Sequence record: MT129652.1
Length of the DNA stretch: 64,000 nucleotides
Source: Escherichia phage MN01
Reading direction: 5' to 3' (one strand)
The notes beneath the pieces were generated by a model that was given only the letters and a program-made list of their open reading frames with translations, had not been told where the DNA came from and did no database searches. Of this stretch, positions 2,969 through 24,098 are shown piece after piece (position 1 is the stretch's first letter; every line of letters begins with the position of its first letter). The translations under genes and the position numbers were made by a program.

Positions 2969-3337
2969 ATGATTGAAATTACATTAAAGCAACCTGAAGA
3001 CTTCCTGAAAGTTAAAGAAACTCTGACCCGTATGGGCATCGCAAATAATAAAGACCGTGTACTGTACCAGAGCTGCCACATCCTCCAGAAGCAAGGTCGT
3101 TACTATATTGTTCACTTCAAAGAAATGCTGCGTATGGATGGTCGTCAGGTGGATATTGATGGCGAAGACTATCAGCGCCGTGATTCCATCGCTCAACTGC
3201 TCGAAGACTGGGGCTTAATCGCTATCAAAGAAGAAGAGCATAATGAATTGTTCGCAGTAACAAACAACTTCCGTGTTATCTCCTTTAAACAAAAAGACGA
3301 CTGGAAGCTCGTAGCCAAATATACAATTGGTAATTAA
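2969..3337 (+). CDS. regA: translational repressor RegA
   Basis: 122 aa, near-identical to recalled T4 RegA (MIEITLK.PEDFLKVKETLTRMGIANNKD). Confidence 0.92.
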   Translation: MIEITLKQPEDFLKVKETLTRMGIANNKDRVLYQSCHILQKQGRYYIVHFKEMLRMDGRQVDIDGEDYQRRDSIAQLLEDWGLIAIKEEEHNELFAVTNNFRVISFKQKDDWKLVAKYTIGN

Positions 3338-3345
3338 TTTAAAGC

Positions 3346-3369
3346 AAAGGGACTTCGGTCCCTTTTGTA
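3346..3369 (+). terminator. rho-independent terminator/hairpin after regA (UUCG tetraloop)
   Basis: AAAGGGAC-ttcg-GTCCCTTT then TTTT; next to TATAAT upstream of gene 43. Confidence 0.55.
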
Positions 3370-3427
3370 GTATAATAGCGTCAAGTCATAAAACAAAAGT
3401 CAATCACTCGACTATAAAGGAAACCAA

Positions 3428-6142
3428 ATGCAAGAATTTTATTTAACTATCGAACAAATCGGTGACAATCTGCTCGAACGATATATTGACAAGAACGGTC
3501 ATGAACGTGTTCGTGAAATCCCTTATGCTCCATGCTTGTTTATGCACGCCCGCGAAGACCAGGCTGCAAAGTATACAGACATCTATAATAAAGGTTGTGT
3601 GAAAAAAGAATTCGATTCCATGCGTGATGCATCCCAGTGGATGAAGCGAATGAATGAAATGGGTCTCGAAGCTATGGGTATGGATGACTTTAAACTCGCA
3701 TACTTGTCCGACCGTTACCCGCACGAAATCAAATACGATTCAAGTAAAATCCGTGTGGCTAACTTCGATATCGAGGTGACATCTCCTGATGGGTTCCCTG
3801 AGCCGTCTGAAGCACGTCACCCTATTGATGCCCTGACACACTATGATTCGGTAGACGATAAATTCTATGTCTTTGACCTTTTGAGCTCACCATACGCCAC
3901 TGTGGAGCAATGGTCTATCGATATTGCTGCCAAGCTGCAAGAAGATGGCGGCGATGAAGTCCCTGAAGAAATCCTGGAAAAAATTGTTTATATGGCTTTC
4001 GATTCAGAAGAAGAAATGCTCCAGCAGTATTTGGTATTCTGGAACGAGAAAACTCCGGTTATGTTAACTGGTTGGAACATCGAGAAGTTTGATATTCCAT
4101 ATATCTACAACCGCCTTAAAAATGTATTTGGTGAAGCTACGGCAAAACGTCTGAGTCCACATCGTCGTACAAAAGTTAAGGTCATTAACAACGGTTTCGG
4201 TGAAGAACAAGAAATCATTCAGATTCTGGGTATCTCTGTTCTGGATTATCTGGACCTGTATAAAAAGTTCAGCTTCACAAACCAACCGTCTTATTCGTTG
4301 GATTATGTTGCGGAATCTGAACTGGGTGTTGGTAAACTCCCGTATGATGGTCCGATTTCTAAACTGCGTGAATCAAATCACCAGCGGTATATTTCTTATA
4401 ACATCATTGACGTTTATCGTGTTGTGCAGATTGACCGTAAGCGGCAGTTTATTAACCTGAGTCAGTCAATGGGTTATTACGCAAAAATGCAGATTCAGTC
4501 TGTATTCAGCCCAATCAAAACTTGGGATGCGATTATCTTTAACAGCCTGAAGACTCAAAACAAAGTCATTCCGGAAACCAAATCGCATGTTCGTCAATCG
4601 TTCCCTGGTGCATTTGTTAAGGAACCGATTCCGAACGCATACAAATATGTAATGAGCTGTGACTTAACATCTCTGTATCCGAGCATCATCCGACAGATTA
4701 ACATCAGTCCAGAAACGATTGCCGGGTCATTTACACCAGCGCCGATGTATGAATACATTGCAGGAACTGCTGACCGCCCATCTGATACATTTAGTTGTGC
4801 TCCAAACGGTATGATGTATTTTAAAGATGTTGCGGGTATTATTCCGACAGAAGTCACCAAGGTGTTTAATCAGCGTAAAGAGCACAAAGGTTATATGCTT
4901 GCGGCTCAACGTAATGGTGAACTGATTAAGGAAGCCCTGCGTAATCCAGGAACTGGTACAACCGAGCCTGAAGTTGATTATCGTTATGACTTCGATGACA
5001 ATATGAAAACAACCTTGCACGGTCTGAATCAAACAGTTCTGAATGGTATGTTGTACAAAGCGCAGATGGAAGAAGTTGCAGGCATGACCGCACAGATTAA
5101 CCGTAAACTGCTTATCAACAGTTGTTATGGCGCTCTGGGTAATATCTGGTTCCGTTACTTTGACCTGCGAAATGCAACCGCGATTACATCTTTCGGACAA
5201 CTTGCATTGCAGTGGATTGAGCGTAAAGTTAACGAATATTTTGATAGTGTTTGCGGTACAAGTGGTGAAACATATGTATTCTATGGTGATACTGACTCCA
5301 TTTATATCCAGTGCGATAACCTGATTAAAAAGGTTGGTGGTGAATCTAAATTCCGCGATACAAACCACCTGGTTGACTTCATGGACAAGTTTGCGAAAGA
5401 CCGTTTGGAACCGGCAATCGATAAAGCTTTCCGTGAGCTGGCTGAATACATGAACAACAAACAGCACCTTATGTTTATGGACCGTGAAGCGATTGCATGT
5501 CCTCCGCTTGGTTCTAAAGGTGTTGGTGGATTCTGGACAGCGAAGAAGCGTTATGCTCTGAACGTGTACGATATGGAAGGCACACGATATGCTGTTCCGA
5601 AACTGAAAATCATGGGTCTGGAAACTCAAAAGTCGAGCACACCAAAAGCATGTCAGAAAGCTCTGAAAGAATGTATCCGCCGTATGTTGCAAGAAGGTGA
5701 AGAATCTCTGCAGACATACTTCAAGGAATTCAATAAGGAATTTAATGAGCTTAACTACATGACCATTGCAGGTGTATCATCGGTTAACAACATCCAGAAA
5801 TATAATGAAGGTGGTTTCCCTGGATTTAAGTGTCCGGCTCATATCAAAGGCGTGCTCGCTTACATGCGTGCAACCAAAGGGTTGAAGACTGTTCCACAAA
5901 TCATGGAAGGGGAAAAGGTGTATGTGCTTCCTCTTAAAGTTGGTAACCCGTTTGGCGAAACCGTGATTGCATGGCCATCAGGGATTGAACTCCCGATTGA
6001 AATTCGTGACCAAGTCTTGCAATGGATGGACTACAACACACTGTTCCAGAAGACTTTTGTTAAGCCATTGACAGGGTTCTCTGAAGCAGCTAAGGTTGAT
6101 TACGAGAAAAAAGCATCTCTTTTTGATATGTTTGACTTTTAA
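3428..6142 (+). CDS. 43: DNA polymerase gp43 (family B, 3-prime to 5-prime exonuclease)
   Basis: 904 aa; exo motif FDIE, pol motifs SLYPSII and YGDTDS; synteny. Confidence 0.95.
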   Translation: MQEFYLTIEQIGDNLLERYIDKNGHERVREIPYAPCLFMHAREDQAAKYTDIYNKGCVKKEFDSMRDASQWMKRMNEMGLEAMGMDDFKLAYLSDRYPHEIKYDSSKIRVANFDIEVTSPDGFPEPSEARHPIDALTHYDSVDDKFYVFDLLSSPYATVEQWSIDIAAKLQEDGGDEVPEEILEKIVYMAFDSEEEMLQQYLVFWNEKTPVMLTGWNIEKFDIPYIYNRLKNVFGEATAKRLSPHRRTKVKVINNGFGEEQEIIQILGISVLDYLDLYKKFSFTNQPSYSLDYVAESELGVGKLPYDGPISKLRESNHQRYISYNIIDVYRVVQIDRKRQFINLSQSMGYYAKMQIQSVFSPIKTWDAIIFNSLKTQNKVIPETKSHVRQSFPGAFVKEPIPNAYKYVMSCDLTSLYPSIIRQINISPETIAGSFTPAPMYEYIAGTADRPSDTFSCAPNGMMYFKDVAGIIPTEVTKVFNQRKEHKGYMLAAQRNGELIKEALRNPGTGTTEPEVDYRYDFDDNMKTTLHGLNQTVLNGMLYKAQMEEVAGMTAQINRKLLINSCYGALGNIWFRYFDLRNATAITSFGQLALQWIERKVNEYFDSVCGTSGETYVFYGDTDSIYIQCDNLIKKVGGESKFRDTNHLVDFMDKFAKDRLEPAIDKAFRELAEYMNNKQHLMFMDREAIACPPLGSKGVGGFWTAKKRYALNVYDMEGTRYAVPKLKIMGLETQKSSTPKACQKALKECIRRMLQEGEESLQTYFKEFNKEFNELNYMTIAGVSSVNNIQKYNEGGFPGFKCPAHIKGVLAYMRATKGLKTVPQIMEGEKVYVLPLKVGNPFGETVIAWPSGIELPIEIRDQVLQWMDYNTLFQKTFVKPLTGFSEAAKVDYEKKASLFDMFDF

Positions 6143-15225: not shown

Positions 15226-15506
15226 TGGCTCGTTTAAATAAACGTCAGCTTAAGAAAGCTCGTAAGAAGCATATTAATGATATAATTGAAAACGCTAATG
15301 TTGAAATCTTTGTAGAACTTTTAGCCAATCAACTAAAAAATTTATCTAAACAAGAAATTGCTATGAATACTGAAAATGCTAAAAATGTAATCGAAACTCA
15401 TAATGTTTTTGCCCAAGCTACTGCTGAATACATTGCTAATCCTACTGCTGAAAATCTAGCTAAAATGACCGAAGCCAATAAAGCAGTCCAAGCCGCCAAA
15501 TTGTAA
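15225..15506 (+). CDS. hypothetical protein
   Basis: 93 aa, helical, basic N-terminus. Confidence 0.45.
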   Translation: MARLNKRQLKKARKKHINDIIENANVEIFVELLANQLKNLSKQEIAMNTENAKNVIETHNVFAQATAEYIANPTAENLAKMTEANKAVQAAKL

Positions 15507-17219: not shown

Positions 17220-17398
17220 TGGATTTATTTGAACTTTTTGAAGAGCCTAAAGCTCCTACGGAAGCCCGTGTTGACCTAGTTGACGAACTTGATGCGATTA
17301 TACAGAAGCACGGTTTTAGCCTCCCAATGGAAGTTCTACGCGACCTGGCCTCATATTATGACGACCCACCTCCATGGGCACCATGGGTGAAACAATGA
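17219..17398 (+). CDS. small hypothetical protein (59 aa)
   Basis: Acidic; overlapping start/stop with neighbours; not in ORF track. Confidence 0.3.
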   Translation: MDLFELFEEPKAPTEARVDLVDELDAIIQKHGFSLPMEVLRDLASYYDDPPPWAPWVKQ

Positions 17399-17649
17399 AC
17401 TGGTTAACAAATATTCCCACATCGGCGCTGGATATCGACCGTAAACATGCTCATAAGGAAATCGAGCAACAAAAAATTAATCGGTTACAAAGGCTTAAGA
17501 CTGAATCCGAGACAATTAAAGCCGAACGACCGACAGAATCGAAAAGTTCTTACTCATCATATCAATCTCCTAACTCATCATATCAATCTCCTATTGGCAT
17601 GGCCGTAGACATTGCAGTCTTTGGCGTTCCACTTGGAGTGTTTAAGTAG
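17395..17649 (+). CDS. hypothetical protein with SSYQSP repeat
   Basis: 84 aa from internal ATG; tandem 21-bp repeat encodes SSYQSPN-SSYQSP. Confidence 0.45.
   Translation: MNWLTNIPTSALDIDRKHAHKEIEQQKINRLQRLKTESETIKAERPTESKSSYSSYQSPNSSYQSPIGMAVDIAVFGVPLGVFK
17552..17592. repeat. tandem 21-bp direct repeat (coding, SSYQSP)
   Basis: ACTCATCATATCAATCTCCT twice, separated by one base. Confidence 0.7.
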
Positions 17650-19060: not shown

Positions 19061-19804
19061 ATGAATATGTCAAAAGAAGAGTTTGAATTAAAAGTTTACA
19101 AACGTCGCGAGCATACCAAAACGTCTGCAAAACGTCGTAACAAGGATTTCAATCTGTCTAGTAAGTATATTGCTAATCTTTTGAAACAAGAATTCTGTGC
19201 GTATTCTGGTGAACGTTTTGATGAAAATTCAACTCAAGATAAAGTTTCCTTTGAACGCTTTAACAATGATATAGGTTATATTGAAGGCAATGTTATCCCT
19301 GTCAAAACTAAGTACAACGGTTTACGTGCTGATTTATCTCTTGATGAACTTAAACGTGCACAGACTCGTTTGGCGGTGCGTATTAATGGCGGTTCTAAGA
19401 TGCCCAATAGTTTTAAAGTAACTCCTGATGGCTATTATAAAATTCGCAAAATTGTTAAAAATATTAAAGATACTGAACGTGGAATCAAGAAGCGTCAAAA
19501 ACATTTAAAAGAGCTTTATAAAAGTGGCGCTAAAGATACCACCCCTTCTGTGATTGCAGTCAAGGCTCGTATACATGGACAAATGGCTTCCATTGGAACT
19601 AGTCAACGTGGACTGAAAATGGTTATGGGTGGTCCTGACTGGCGTCTGAAAATGAAATCATCTGACGCTGAAACGCGTTACGATATGTATGATAAAATTA
19701 TTCAAGGTCTGGAGCGTTTAGATAAGTTGTCATTCATTGACCGTCTTAAACTGAAACGTGGCCTGCCTTTGAACGCGTCAATTTTTAAACTGATTAGAGG
19801 TTAA
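19061..19804 (+). CDS. hypothetical protein (srd position)
   Basis: 247 aa, basic; where T4 has srd (about 250 aa); possible degenerate HNH-like Cys motif; identity unverified. Confidence 0.5.
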   Translation: MNMSKEEFELKVYKRREHTKTSAKRRNKDFNLSSKYIANLLKQEFCAYSGERFDENSTQDKVSFERFNNDIGYIEGNVIPVKTKYNGLRADLSLDELKRAQTRLAVRINGGSKMPNSFKVTPDGYYKIRKIVKNIKDTERGIKKRQKHLKELYKSGAKDTTPSVIAVKARIHGQMASIGTSQRGLKMVMGGPDWRLKMKSSDAETRYDMYDKIIQGLERLDKLSFIDRLKLKRGLPLNASIFKLIRG

Positions 19805-19808
19805 TGTG

Positions 19809-20105
19809 ATGTACTACGCATATGTGCTGGTCCACAAAGATAAAGATGGTTTTGAACACCCATTGGAGTATAATGGAAAGGTTACCTTATACACCACAAA
19901 AGCGGGCGCAGAATATGAACTTGCCAACTATTCATATACTACAAACCGATATTTAAGTATGGGACGTATTGAAACCAGTTACATTCCCAGGAAGTGGTGG
20001 TTTGATAAACGGGAAACAAAAACAGTTTTTCCTACTGAAGAACACGCACGAGAATTGAAACAGGTTTTATATACTTTATATGTTAAGCGAGTAAAATTGG
20101 CATGA
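19809..20105 (+). CDS. hypothetical protein
   Basis: 98 aa; ends 4 nt into dda. Confidence 0.45.
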   Translation: MYYAYVLVHKDKDGFEHPLEYNGKVTLYTTKAGAEYELANYSYTTNRYLSMGRIETSYIPRKWWFDKRETKTVFPTEEHARELKQVLYTLYVKRVKLA

Positions 20106-21430
20106 TTAAATTTGAAGACTTGAACACAGGACAAAAAGAAGCTTTTGATTATATCACTGAAGCTATTCAGCGACGTTCAGGGGAATGTATCACTCTGAAT
20201 GGTCCAGCTGGCACAGGTAAGACCACTCTGACAAAATTTGTCATTGACCACTTAGTGCGTAATGGAGTTATGGGAATTGTGCTCGCTGCACCAACTCACC
20301 AGGCGAAAAAAGTTTTATCTAAATTGTCTGGTCAAACAGCGAATACAATCCATAGTATCTTGAAGATTAACCCGACCACATATGAAGACCAAAACGTTTT
20401 TGAACAGCGCGAAATGCCTGACATGTCAAAATGTAATGTTCTGGTTTGCGATGAAGCAAGTATGTATGACGGGTCTCTGTTTAAGATTATTCTTAACTCT
20501 GTTCCTGAATGGTGTACTATTCTTGGGATTGGTGATATGCACCAGCTGCAGCCGGTTGACCCAGGAAGTACACAACAAAAGATAAGTCCATTCTTTACGC
20601 ATCCTAAGTTCAAACAGATTCATTTGACTGAGGTCATGCGAAGCAATGCTCCTATCATTGAAGTGGCGACAGAAATTCGCAATGGTGGTTGGTTCCGCGA
20701 CTGTATGTATGAAGGTCATGGCGTGCAAGGTTTCACCTCACAAACTGCTTTAAAGGATTTCATGGTAAACTATTTCAGTATTGTAAAAGATGCTGATATG
20801 TTGATGGAAAACAGGATGTATGCATACACGAATAAATCAGTTGAAAAACTGAACAATATTATTCGTCGCAAGCTATATGAAACGGATAAAGCATTTTTAC
20901 CGTATGAAGTCCTGGTTATGCAAGAGCCGCACATGAAAGAGCTGGAATTTGAAGGTAAGAAATTCAGCGAAACCATTTTTAATAATGGTCAGTTGGTTCG
21001 CATCAAGGATTGCAAATACACTTCCACCATTCTCCGTTGTAAAGGCGAATCGCACCAGTTAGTGATTAATTACTGGGACCTGGAAGTTGAGTCAATTGAT
21101 GAAGATGAAGAATATCAGGTTGACCGCATTAAAGTTTTACCAGAAGACCAGCAACCAAAATTCCAGGCATATCTGGCGAAAGTTGCTGACACATACAAAC
21201 AGATGAAAGCCGCTGGTAAACGTCCAGAGTGGAAAGACTTCTGGAAAGCGCGCAGGACCTTTTTGAAAGTTCGTGCTCTTCCGGTCAGTACAATCCACAA
21301 GGCCCAGGGCGTTTCAGTGGACAAAGCATTCATCTATACTCCATGCATCCATATGGCCGAAGCTTCATTAGCGAGCCAGTTGGCTTATGTTGGAATCACA
21401 CGAGCGAGGTACGACGCATATTATGTATAA
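20102..21430 (+). CDS. dda: DNA helicase Dda (SF1B)
   Basis: 442 aa (T4 Dda 439); Walker A GPAGTGKTT, DEASM Walker B. Confidence 0.9.
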   Translation: MIKFEDLNTGQKEAFDYITEAIQRRSGECITLNGPAGTGKTTLTKFVIDHLVRNGVMGIVLAAPTHQAKKVLSKLSGQTANTIHSILKINPTTYEDQNVFEQREMPDMSKCNVLVCDEASMYDGSLFKIILNSVPEWCTILGIGDMHQLQPVDPGSTQQKISPFFTHPKFKQIHLTEVMRSNAPIIEVATEIRNGGWFRDCMYEGHGVQGFTSQTALKDFMVNYFSIVKDADMLMENRMYAYTNKSVEKLNNIIRRKLYETDKAFLPYEVLVMQEPHMKELEFEGKKFSETIFNNGQLVRIKDCKYTSTILRCKGESHQLVINYWDLEVESIDEDEEYQVDRIKVLPEDQQPKFQAYLAKVADTYKQMKAAGKRPEWKDFWKARRTFLKVRALPVSTIHKAQGVSVDKAFIYTPCIHMAEASLASQLAYVGITRARYDAYYV

Positions 21431-21668
21431 AGTACATAAAGAAGATTTAGATAATCTTATCTATGGTATTCAGGACGCGGTTGAATTTTTCGAAGATAAT
21501 CCGACTATCGTCGTGCAGGGTAATTACGTTTTGCTGGAACTGAATCTTATTCGGAAACGTATGGCCGCGATTGAATATTTTAACAATGAAGAGCCAGGGA
21601 TTTTTATCTCCGACTATGTTGCTGGTGAAATTCAGAAATTAAAAGAGATGTGCGATGGTTGCTGGTGA
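21423..21668 (+). CDS. hypothetical protein
   Basis: 81 aa from ATG overlapping dda stop; 3-prime end lies in a 40-bp tandem duplication. Confidence 0.45.
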   Translation: MYKVHKEDLDNLIYGIQDAVEFFEDNPTIVVQGNYVLLELNLIRKRMAAIEYFNNEEPGIFISDYVAGEIQKLKEMCDGCW

Positions 21669-21700
21669 AATTCAAAAATTAAAAGAGATGTGCGATGATT
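21621..21700. repeat. tandem duplication, 2 x 40 bp, at the dexA 5-prime junction
   Basis: GCTGGTGAAATTCAGAAATTAAAAGAGATGTGCGATGGTT followed by a copy with 2 mismatches; second copy carries the dexA start. Confidence 0.8.
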
Positions 21701-22378
21701 GATGCTATTATTGACTTTGAAACTCTGGGAAACGGCTCGAAGGGAGCCGTTATTGACCTGGCTCTGATTACATTCGAATCTGACCCTGCTATTGTGGAAT
21801 CATTCGAAACCCTGGTTAATCGCGGCAAACGTATTAAGTTCAGTCTCGAATACCAAAAAGGTAAGCGGTTGTTCGACACAACAACCATGGGTTGGTGGAA
21901 AAAGCAATCAGCGGAAGCCCGTGTTAACTTGGCTCCTTCTGCACAAGATGTTGATACTCTGACCGGTATCCAACAAGCAATTGATTATCTGAATGGTAAT
22001 GGAATTAACAAATACGAAAGCCTTATGTGGTGTCGTGGAATGTCTTTTGACTTCCCGTTGTTTGTTGACCTTATCCGCGACCTGCAACGCAATGAGGGGA
22101 TTCCTGAGCGCGAATTGAATACCTATGACCTGGAGCCGGTTGTATTCTGGAACCAGCGAGATATCAGGACAGCCATCGAAGCCCTATCACTCGTCCGTAA
22201 GATGTGTGAAACTCCATTACCGAAGGGGACTTTAGATGGATTTGTGGCGCATGATTCGGTGCATGACTGCGCGAAAGATATTTTGATGTTGAAGTATGCC
22301 CAGCGCTATGCTCTTGGTTTAGATGAAGTTCCTTCCGAAGAAGATGCAGACCCATTATCTTTACCGAAAAAACGATAA
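21695..22378 (+). CDS. dexA: exonuclease A DexA (DnaQ-like)
   Basis: 227 aa as T4 DexA; Exo I motif IIDFETLG. Confidence 0.88.
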   Translation: MIDAIIDFETLGNGSKGAVIDLALITFESDPAIVESFETLVNRGKRIKFSLEYQKGKRLFDTTTMGWWKKQSAEARVNLAPSAQDVDTLTGIQQAIDYLNGNGINKYESLMWCRGMSFDFPLFVDLIRDLQRNEGIPERELNTYDLEPVVFWNQRDIRTAIEALSLVRKMCETPLPKGTLDGFVAHDSVHDCAKDILMLKYAQRYALGLDEVPSEEDADPLSLPKKR

Positions 22379-22385
22379 AAAGTAG

Positions 22386-22414
22386 TGTACAAGGCCAATG
22401 GAAAGAGACATAAT
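22386..22414 (+). promoter_or_regulatory. early promoter cassette
   Basis: AAAAGTAGTGTACA, 17 bp, CATAAT; leader CATCAACTACTGATGAGGA. Confidence 0.55.
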
Positions 22415-22445
22415 TATCTCATCAACTACTGATGAGGATAACAAA

Positions 22446-22703
22446 ATGATTACTTCTTTTGAAATTGGCCAACAATATGAAATGTCTGCTCTTCAAGCTG
22501 CTGAAGCAGGTCTGACTAAAGCGTTTGAATGTGCATTTACAAATATTCGTGGTAAAATCTTTACTGTCAATAAAATTGCGGTATATGATAAAGAAACAGA
22601 CATGAACAAAGGCATCTACTTGAACGTGTCAAACGCAAAAGGTCGTCGTGAAATTATGGTTGTACAACCTAACCAACTGGCGATGTTCAATAAGGTTGCA
22701 TAA
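22446..22703 (+). CDS. hypothetical protein
   Basis: 85 aa from SD-preceded ATG; track ORF 22398 reads through the conserved leader. Confidence 0.5.
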   Translation: MITSFEIGQQYEMSALQAAEAGLTKAFECAFTNIRGKIFTVNKIAVYDKETDMNKGIYLNVSNAKGRREIMVVQPNQLAMFNKVA

Positions 22704-23458
22704 TGAAACCAGAATTTATTGACTTTGATGTTGTAAGCATGTATGTTCGCCCAATTAAACCATTAAAACTTGAGAAACAAAATATGACTATTGAAATTAA
22801 CAAAACTTATCAACTGATTGAACCTATTATTCAAAACGCAGCTATGGTTTCTGGGTATAATACTCTGACTGATGCTTTAGGCGAAGGTGAATTTATTGTT
22901 GAAACTTTTGTAAAAAGTAACTGGTTTGATAAAGCATATATTCTACATGCACGTCGCCTTGATACAAATGAAGTAGAAAAAATTACGGTTTATGAAGCTG
23001 AGATTGAACTCTTCAAAGAAGTTGAAGAAACTCCTATCAAAGTTGGTAAAACCTATCAGCTTATTGAAGATGCTAGTCAGTTTGGAAAGACCGTTGCAAT
23101 GCATGCTGGTTGGCGCGTACTGAAAGGTATTTTTGGATTTGCTCCATTTACCGTTAAAACAGTTAAGTACCACAATCACCAAAGCATCTTTGAATTTACT
23201 GCGGTCAATGAATCAGGTGACAATCTTGAAGCTATCCTTTATCCGCGTGAATCTGTACTGCTGGAAGAAGTTAGCGAACTGGGTGACCCTATTGACTTGC
23301 TGTGTAAACCAGTTCAAATCAAACGCCCATTTAACAGTTCCATTTGTGGTTGGGTAACAGACCAGTGGATTGAAGAGGGTGTTGAACTCCTGAACGTTGT
23401 TCATGCTGGTGAATTTACTGTTGTACCACGTTCCATGGTTGTTGAAATTTTTAATTAA
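22703..23458 (+). CDS. hypothetical protein (paralog family A)
   Basis: 251 aa; C-terminal TDQWIEEGVELLNVVHAGEFTVVP shared with 23538..24098. Confidence 0.55.
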   Translation: MKPEFIDFDVVSMYVRPIKPLKLEKQNMTIEINKTYQLIEPIIQNAAMVSGYNTLTDALGEGEFIVETFVKSNWFDKAYILHARRLDTNEVEKITVYEAEIELFKEVEETPIKVGKTYQLIEDASQFGKTVAMHAGWRVLKGIFGFAPFTVKTVKYHNHQSIFEFTAVNESGDNLEAILYPRESVLLEEVSELGDPIDLLCKPVQIKRPFNSSICGWVTDQWIEEGVELLNVVHAGEFTVVPRSMVVEIFN

Positions 23459-23466
23459 ATTTAAAG

Positions 23467-23500
23467 TGTACAAACTCTTGGGGTCGGAGTATAATGACCC
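23467..23500 (+). promoter_or_regulatory. early promoter cassette with inverted repeat bracketing -10
   Basis: TGTACA, 17 bp, TATAAT; TGGGGTC...GACCCCA flanks the -10. Confidence 0.55.
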
Positions 23501-23537
23501 CACTGGAGAATAAACTTATTAACCAAGAGAGAAAATT

Positions 23538-24098
23538 ATGAAAGTTGAAGCTGGCGAAATCGTTCGCGTATCCAAAAAATCTCGTTCAAGAGCTGCTGGA
23601 CGTTTTGTTGAGGTTGTCAGTATTCGTGCTGATATTTTTGTTGACCATCCTGATAATGAAGTAAAGGTGCGTATCATTCCCAAAAATGGTCAGACTGAAA
23701 CTCAATTCGCTTATGTACGTGCTAAATTCCTGGAATCAACTGCTATCACTGCCACCAACCTCCCTGTGGTTGAAGAAGTTGAATCCCATGATGGATATGT
23801 GTGCGAAAGCAATGATATTCGTGGCGTAATTGCTCAAGACGTTGAAACCATTGACCAGTCTCATGTTGGGGTTGATTTTAAATGGAAATTGGGCAAAGGT
23901 GTCTTTTTTGTTTCACCTAAACCGTTTGAATATGTTGACGAACCTTTTGGTACTTATGAAACCACTAGCATGTCTGGTTACATCACAGACCAGTGGGTTG
24001 AAGAAGGCGTTAAGCTCTATAACATCGTGTTCCTTGGAACCTTTAAGGTGGTTCCTGAAAGCTTTATCGTTGAGTATGCTGATATTCATCGTGCCTAA
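23538..24098 (+). CDS. hypothetical protein (paralog family A)
   Basis: 186 aa; C-terminal TDQWVEEGVKLYNIVFLGTFKVVP; own promoter cassette. Confidence 0.55.
   Translation: MKVEAGEIVRVSKKSRSRAAGRFVEVVSIRADIFVDHPDNEVKVRIIPKNGQTETQFAYVRAKFLESTAITATNLPVVEEVESHDGYVCESNDIRGVIAQDVETIDQSHVGVDFKWKLGKGVFFVSPKPFEYVDEPFGTYETTSMSGYITDQWVEEGVKLYNIVFLGTFKVVPESFIVEYADIHRA

Follow-up and report, generated by a model that had tools for sequence, protein, structure and literature searches.

A segregating 40-bp tandem duplication at the junction between a small ORF and dexA in Gaprivervirus phages

Immediately upstream of dexA, the window (the whole 64,000-nt stretch of DNA analysed here) carries a 40-bp segment twice in succession, and the repeat straddles the boundary between dexA and a small ORF of the same strand. 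Such an arrangement raises the question of whether we are looking at a fresh accident in one genome, an error of assembly, or an inherited variant, and of what it does to the two genes that meet there. The best explanation, and in our judgement a likely one, is a near-neutral inherited variant of single origin. The features discussed are collected in Table 1.

Table 1. Features at the dda - small ORF - dexA junction, in window coordinates.
Feature	Position	Strand	Remarks
dda helicase, 442 aa	20102-21430	+	Pfam Dda SH3 domain, AAA_30, PIF1; annotated dda in relatives
small ORF, 81 aa, ends ...KEMCDGCW and stop	ATG 21423 to TGA 21668	+	phrog_5263, E=2.9e-32
copy 1 of 40-bp unit	21618-21657	+	GTTGCTGGTGAAATTCAGAAATTAAAAGAGATGTGCGATG
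copy 2 of 40-bp unit	21658-21697	+	GTTGCTGGTGAAATTCAAAAATTAAAAGAGATGTGCGATG
new junction, GATG / GTTGCTGG	21654-21665, break between 21657 and 21658	+	same in 16/16 two-copy loci
15-codon relay ORF	21655-21702	+	MVAGEIQKLKEMCDD and stop; translation inferred from sequence
dexA, 3'-5' exonuclease A, 227 aa	21695-22378	+	phrog_255 exonuclease, E=6.5e-75; PF16473

The two copies stand head to tail with no spacer and, by repeat finding, are identical at 39/40 positions (98%). TRF places the array at 21618-21701, with a period of 40, 2.1 copies, 95% matches and a score of 154, the highest in the window (the runner-up scores 84). Computed from the base composition of the window, about 2.5e-15 adjacent 40-nt pairs with at most one mismatch would occur by chance at any period from 10 to 100. 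The only mismatch between the copies in the window is G21635 against A21675, that is, CAG against CAA, a synonymous glutamine codon. Neither the unit nor its junction occurs a second time within the window. The sequence-only reading had reported two adjacent copies at 21621-21700 with two mismatches (21635/21675 and 21658/21698); the repeat is real, at a chance level near 1e-15, and the count of mismatches is right for the register 21621-21660/21661-21700, which is a 3-nt rotation of the one used here.

Copy 1 encodes the conserved final 13 codons of the small ORF (VAGEIQKLKEMCD) and also holds a duplicate dexA Shine-Dalgarno sequence (AAAGAG, 21642-21647) and ATG (21655-21657). Copy 2 holds the stop of the small ORF in a shifted frame (TGA, 21666-21668), the working dexA Shine-Dalgarno sequence (GAG, 21685-21687, 7 nt 5' of the ATG) and the dexA ATG itself (21695-21697). 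The earlier assignment of the first copy to the C-terminus of the 81-aa ORF and of the second to the dexA RBS and start codon can be read directly from the letters, and its view of the repeat as a tandem-duplication scar at a gene boundary is borne out as well. We also considered a functional tandem-repeat element of the iteron or protein-binding array type, for which at least three copies, or an array kept across relatives, would be expected; among the 35 loci parsed the copy number never exceeds two, and the array is missing from two thirds of the isolates.

At its upstream end the small ORF overlaps dda, its start codon lying over the dda stop (ATGTATAA). Precomputed annotation assigns the small ORF to PF26837 (Phage_T4_Y00H_G), a local Pfam scan returned no match for it, and the records of VR7, VR20 and ECML-359 label it as similar to T4 DexA.2. 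Annotators differ over its start, some using ATG 21387, inside dda (93 or 91 aa), and others ATG 21423 (81 or 79 aa), and public protein collections hold both versions. DexA is 227 aa long in 29/30 parsable loci whatever the copy state, the exception being TH44 with 229 aa.

A megablast search with 21387-21900 as query matched 33 phage records, representing 27 unique genomes, and nearly all matched records with a full taxonomy line belong to Gaprivervirus (Straboviridae, Tevenvirinae), which are T4-like phages; the matched genomes include SP18, VR7, VR20, VR25, VR26, the TH series and UPEC01/07. Over 20 kb no matched relative exceeds about 96% identity to the window, which is therefore a distinct member of Gaprivervirus. 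Extra matches in VR20 and UPEC01, which had the look of second places, proved to be off-register self-matches of the repeat, with no second locus; the search reported a second place in DCP80 too.

Comparison with related genomes, which the sequence-only reading had proposed as the way to find the ancestral copy number, gave a consistent answer. A single unit is present in 18/27 unique relatives, where the small ORF is 79 aa long, ends in ...KEMCDD and stop, and has its TGA overlapping the dexA ATG by 8 nt (ATGATTGA), as annotated in SP18, VR7 and others. All members of the most divergent clade in Gaprivervirus (VR7, VR25, VR26, TH15 and TH40) have one copy. The order dda - small ORF - dexA is found as well in the Karamvirus CC31, with a 4-nt overlap at the dexA start; outside Gaprivervirus the small ORF has at most 33% protein identity, and the junction has no nucleotide-level outgroup. 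Judged by the state of most isolates, the deepest clade and the layout in CC31, the one-copy state is ancestral.

The two-copy allele is present in 9/27 isolates (about 33%), namely TH54, TH57, TH22, TH55 and TH41, all from sewage in the USA, UPEC01 and UPEC07 from Uganda, VR20 from Lithuania, and ECML-359. Two copies are likewise found in each of six other Logan or metagenome contigs (6/6), which come from SPAdes, MEGAHIT and Logan assemblies. The flanks of SRR11772948, one of the six, match those of TH57 exactly, and this contig may stem from a sequencing run of that isolate. The window, the nine isolates and these six contigs make up the 16 two-copy loci referred to below. At the protein level, about 30 blocks of public assemblies record the exact 81-aa two-copy form; counted by contig, the exact 81-aa product is found on 14 and the matching 79-aa form on 19. 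In the protein cluster as listed, two-copy forms account for 18/89 contigs (about 20%) and one-copy forms for 71. A scan of IMG/VR with the two-state pattern found nothing beyond the VR20, VR25 and VR26 genomes again, a scan of JGI metagenomes matched a single contig, with one copy, and a scan of bacterial and archaeal genomes found no match. Of the Gaprivervirus genomes sampled, between about a fifth and a third carry the two-copy allele. Public records already contain it, VR20 having been deposited with the 81-aa ORF, and a literature search for Gaprivervirus together with tandem duplication found the genus name in no paper among the matches listed.

As 40 is not a multiple of three, the duplication replaces the terminal D of the small ORF with GCW. 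The two-copy ORF ends GAT GGT TGC TGG TGA, everything upstream of the changed tail is intact, and the stop now lies 27 nt before the dexA ATG. Because the duplicated Shine-Dalgarno sequence and ATG open an ORF that ends at the ancestral TGA, a relay of overlaps results, from the small ORF to a 15-codon relay ORF and from there to dexA. The relay ORF runs from the duplicated dexA ATG through the old C-terminal codons to TGA 21700-21702, overlapping the end of the small ORF by 14 nt and the dexA ATG by 8 nt, and the GAG at 21685-21687 lies inside it. Creation of a tiny ORF had been noticed before; it is this one, and its conceptual translation is confirmed.

This layout is that of coupled genes, with an upstream stop overlapping a downstream start and a Shine-Dalgarno sequence inside the upstream coding sequence, and the relay ORF probably preserves termination-reinitiation coupling into dexA. 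The one-copy state, with its 8-nt overlap ATGATTGA, has exactly the form of the ATGA-type overlapping coupled pairs of T4-type early operons, and the relay ORF of the two-copy state retains an 8-nt overlap with dexA; the difference from such pairs is that a 15-codon ORF with a duplicated dexA RBS sits between the two genes, coupling being predicted. There is also some likeness to bacterial leader peptides and upstream ORFs, in that a short ORF with its own Shine-Dalgarno sequence ends over a downstream start codon. Unlike those, however, the relay ORF is a by-product of duplication, its peptide is the old C-terminus of a neighbour and is unconserved, with an A to V change in three contigs, and attenuator structure is absent by folding analysis. 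RNA folding of the two-copy and one-copy states gave no structure beyond shuffled controls (z = 0.46 and 0.01), and a scan for promoters and terminators found none within the repeat.

Given these consequences, the duplication might be an adaptive regulatory variant or toggle, in which DexA translation is uncoupled from the 79-aa ORF and placed behind a private 15-codon leader, with selection keeping both states; we regard this as unlikely, though it is the strongest of the alternatives. It would be consistent with the persistence of two copies (in 9/27 isolates and 18/89 listed contigs) despite copy-number change on near-identical haplotypes, described below, and with the wide geographic spread of the allele. 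If copies are precisely lost as often as those near-identical haplotypes suggest, an allele that persists at about 20-33% could be a hint of selection over neutrality. The reading also draws on RegA, of which the T4 dexA mRNA is a target, with an A/U-rich operator at the AUG (PMC3014915). The unit contains an A/U-rich, unstructured stretch, AAAAAUUAAAAGAG, located 8-21 nt before the dexA AUG and having a 5' A tract. As a comparable A-rich tract lies within the unit, a candidate RegA-type operator may have been doubled, which we offer as a lead only: the likeness is compositional only, the sequence differs from that of the T4 operator (AAAAUUUAAUGUUU), and the A-rich tract is followed by an internal AUG, which stands 7 nt before the true start.

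Several observations weigh against regulation as the explanation. The 40 nt upstream of the dexA ATG are the same in the two-copy window and in one-copy relatives, and the duplication should therefore leave de novo initiation as it was. The relay peptide varies, as noted, and the duplication makes no structure, promoter or terminator. A neutral allele, moreover, can spread by frequent recombination alone. We give a little less weight still to a selected reversible switch, in which exchange between copies and re-import would toggle dexA between two modes, one coupled directly to the 79-aa ORF and the other to the private 15-codon leader, possibly with a RegA-type operator in double, thereby tuning the DexA level; if that were true, balancing selection would hold both states in Gaprivervirus populations worldwide.

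We return, then, to an inherited near-neutral variant and to the evidence on its origin. At least five two-copy haplotypes can be told apart, their copies differing at 0-3 positions. In haplotype a, copy 1 has CAG and TGC and copy 2 has CAA and TGC (one difference); it is found in the window, in seven isolates (TH54, TH57, TH22, TH55, UPEC07, ECML-359 and TH41) and in the Logan contigs L033 and L036, the run behind L036 matching no isolate. Haplotype b, in VR20 and UPEC01, has CAG and TGC in copy 1 and CAG and TGT in copy 2 (one difference), while haplotype c, in L039, has TGT in both copies (no differences). Haplotype d, in L035 and L041, has GCT, CAG and TGT in copy 1 against GTT, CAA and TGC in copy 2 (three differences), and haplotype e, in L038, has GCT and GGC against GTT and GGT (two differences).

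Throughout this diversity the junction, GCGATG / GTTGCTGG, is identical in 16/16 two-copy loci. The two ends of the unit have no more than TTG in common (GTTG on the left side, ATTG past the right end), offset by one mismatched base. Pairing on this TTG predicts an A where G21658 stands at the junction (GCGATGATTGCTGGTGA), and a small ORF ending ...MCDDCW; pairing on a nearby ATG predicts an in-frame 39-bp duplication (GCGATGTTGCTGGTGA). On the commonest protein background, neither the ...MCDDCW product nor the 39-bp product is present in a collection of 15 billion proteins. In experimental evolution of T4, independent duplications formed at microhomologies of 2-10 bp and their boundaries differed from line to line (PMC9391042). 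Since the junction is shared, and the boundaries of independent T4-type duplications normally differ, a single origin of the duplication is most likely, and the identical, non-canonical junctions point to identity by descent. Formation could possibly have taken two steps, a duplication followed by an A-to-G change at G21658.

The contrary possibility, a hot spot at which the same 40-bp duplication arises independently in different lineages, we consider improbable. It would account for the presence of the duplication on several flank haplotypes, including those distinguished by SNPs 4-7 nt to the left of the repeat, with which four-gamete violations are seen, and for L039, whose identical TGT copies on a TGT-type background have the look of a fresh independent duplication; the TTG microhomology at both ends of the unit could favour recurrence. 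Recurrence would not, however, be expected to yield the same junction 16 times out of 16, with G rather than the A that TTG pairing predicts, nor to leave the ...MCDDCW product missing from the protein collection or the boundaries invariant when those of independent T4 duplications differ. In UPEC01 and VR20, TGC of copy 1 is paired with TGT of copy 2, a combination not to be expected had one allele or the other been freshly duplicated. The region, furthermore, is visibly mosaic.

If the duplication arose once, its age is of interest. Within 500 bp on either side of the repeat, the median difference among two-copy loci is 33 of 1,040 nt and the largest is 51 (4.9%); among one-copy loci the median is 45 of 1,040 nt. 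Diverse flanks alone are no proof of great age, given the frequent recombination of T4-type phages. The copy-2 change of GCT to GTT, however, is found in no one-copy locus and in none of the 11 listed one-copy-form proteins, and its confinement to two-copy genomes implies that at least one mutation arose and spread within the two-copy lineage. Taken with the single junction in 16 loci, the isolates among them coming from at least three countries, with the five or more haplotypes, flanks differing by up to 51/1,040 nt, the four-gamete violations close to the repeat and the near-identical haplotypes that have one copy or two, this does not support the word 'recent', which the sequence-only reading had used; the duplication is, on these comparisons, neither recent nor private. 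Slippage confined to the genome of the window, as that reading envisaged, agrees with the window copies differing at just one position, but it retains next to no probability, being refuted by the same CAG/CAA allele in seven isolates and in L033 and L036 and by the existence of other two-copy haplotypes. Least credible of all is an assembly artefact through spurious repeat expansion, raised earlier as a possible outcome of resequencing: the 16 two-copy loci come from de novo assemblies of different laboratories, samples and assemblers, the 40-bp repeat, and even the whole array of 80 bp, is shorter than a typical read, and the differences between copies are consistent across genomes, so that artefact is excluded for the two-copy allele as such.

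One-copy and two-copy genomes can be nearly or entirely identical around the locus. EAWsc9, with one copy, matches TH22, TH55 and UPEC07, which have two, at every one of 1,040 nt, where the median pairwise distance is 41. Two further one-copy genomes, pEC-M719 and YenP8, lie 3 and 5 nt from the TH22/TH55/UPEC07 haplotype, and the single copy of pEC-M719 has CAA, elsewhere seen only in copy 2 of two-copy genomes. These near-identical haplotypes fit precise loss of one unit by exchange between the copies, with the crossover to the left or the right of the SNP, although the same pattern would be seen if a short recombination patch had been imported or exported. Copy number is therefore unstable among close relatives, as is characteristic of T4-type tandem duplications.

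The surroundings of the locus deserve separate comment. The srd-dda-dexA-motB region (window 19387-23900, compared across loci L001-L027) is an extreme recombination mosaic with haplotype blocks of about 100-300 bp, and clustering over the whole 4.4 kb is uninformative on origin for that reason. For EAWsc9 and TH22, identical over the central 1 kb, neither ranks among the nearest neighbours of the other over the 4.4-kb locus, in which close neighbours are already some 65-150 positions apart. In one of the records, PQ671644.1 (L013, Escherichia phage DCP80, 140,978 bp), the gene after dexA is followed directly, within 3020-4474, by genes for a 'terminase large subunit' and a 'tail sheath'; motB.1 and motB are missing at that place, which suggests a large deletion or a misassembly in the deposited genome.

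Tandem duplications and amplifications are familiar from T4, examples cited in PMC9391042 being the rII duplications, Hp17 and dmd-tifA (Kumagai 1993, Wu 1991, Srikant 2022). The repeat described here is like them in being a head-to-tail direct repeat derived from a one-copy ancestor, with little or no homology at its ends and with unstable copy number. It differs in size, the unit being 40 bp instead of 0.5 to several kb, and no dosage effect arises, because no whole gene is duplicated. It differs also in its junction, which offers only a TTG offset by a mismatched base instead of a clean microhomology of 2-10 bp, and, unlike the laboratory-selected mutants of T4, it is a natural and geographically widespread polymorphism.

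Two other short tandem repeats were seen in the window. A perfect 21-bp repeat in two copies at 17552-17593, inside a 91-aa ORF (17374-17649, + strand) adjoining the modA.2 region, is an in-frame duplication of seven amino acids (...SSYSSYQSPNSSYQSPIG...). The matched span at that locus is 327 nt in ECML-359, which is identical, and about 321 nt in pEC-M719, TH22, TH55 and UPEC07; in SP18, VR20, TH54, RZ and others it is shorter by one unit, at about 305 nt. With length polymorphism at this locus too, short segregating tandem duplications seem to be recurrent in Gaprivervirus. The other repeat, at 15418-15463, is an imperfect one of 24 bp x1.9 (81% matches, TRF score 64).

On the reading we prefer, the 40-bp duplication would go back to a single event in some ancestor from the SP18-like section of Gaprivervirus, either illegitimate or minimal-microhomology recombination or a template switch, spanning the 8 nt by which the small ORF and dexA overlap. 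Both genes survived the event because the duplicated segment contains the last 13 codons of the small ORF together with the dexA RBS and ATG, and the duplication would be tolerated because one good copy of the critical end of each gene remains. Homologous recombination would later have carried it onto many genetic backgrounds, and changes between one and two copies on a single haplotype would reflect precise loss by exchange between copies or the import of a short patch.

The event is genuine but of an ordinary kind, a short stretch duplicated in tandem where two genes overlap. For those working with these phages, the 40-bp indel is a handy marker for population studies of Gaprivervirus, and annotators should expect both 79-aa and 81-aa forms of the small ORF. 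The variant would gain in importance only if the one-copy and two-copy states differed in DexA expression or in fitness. As it stands, the locus is a natural example of a short tandem duplication that separates two overlapping genes with damage to neither, that persists while T4-type phages, with their very high recombination, shuffle it, and whose copy number flips on otherwise identical haplotypes.
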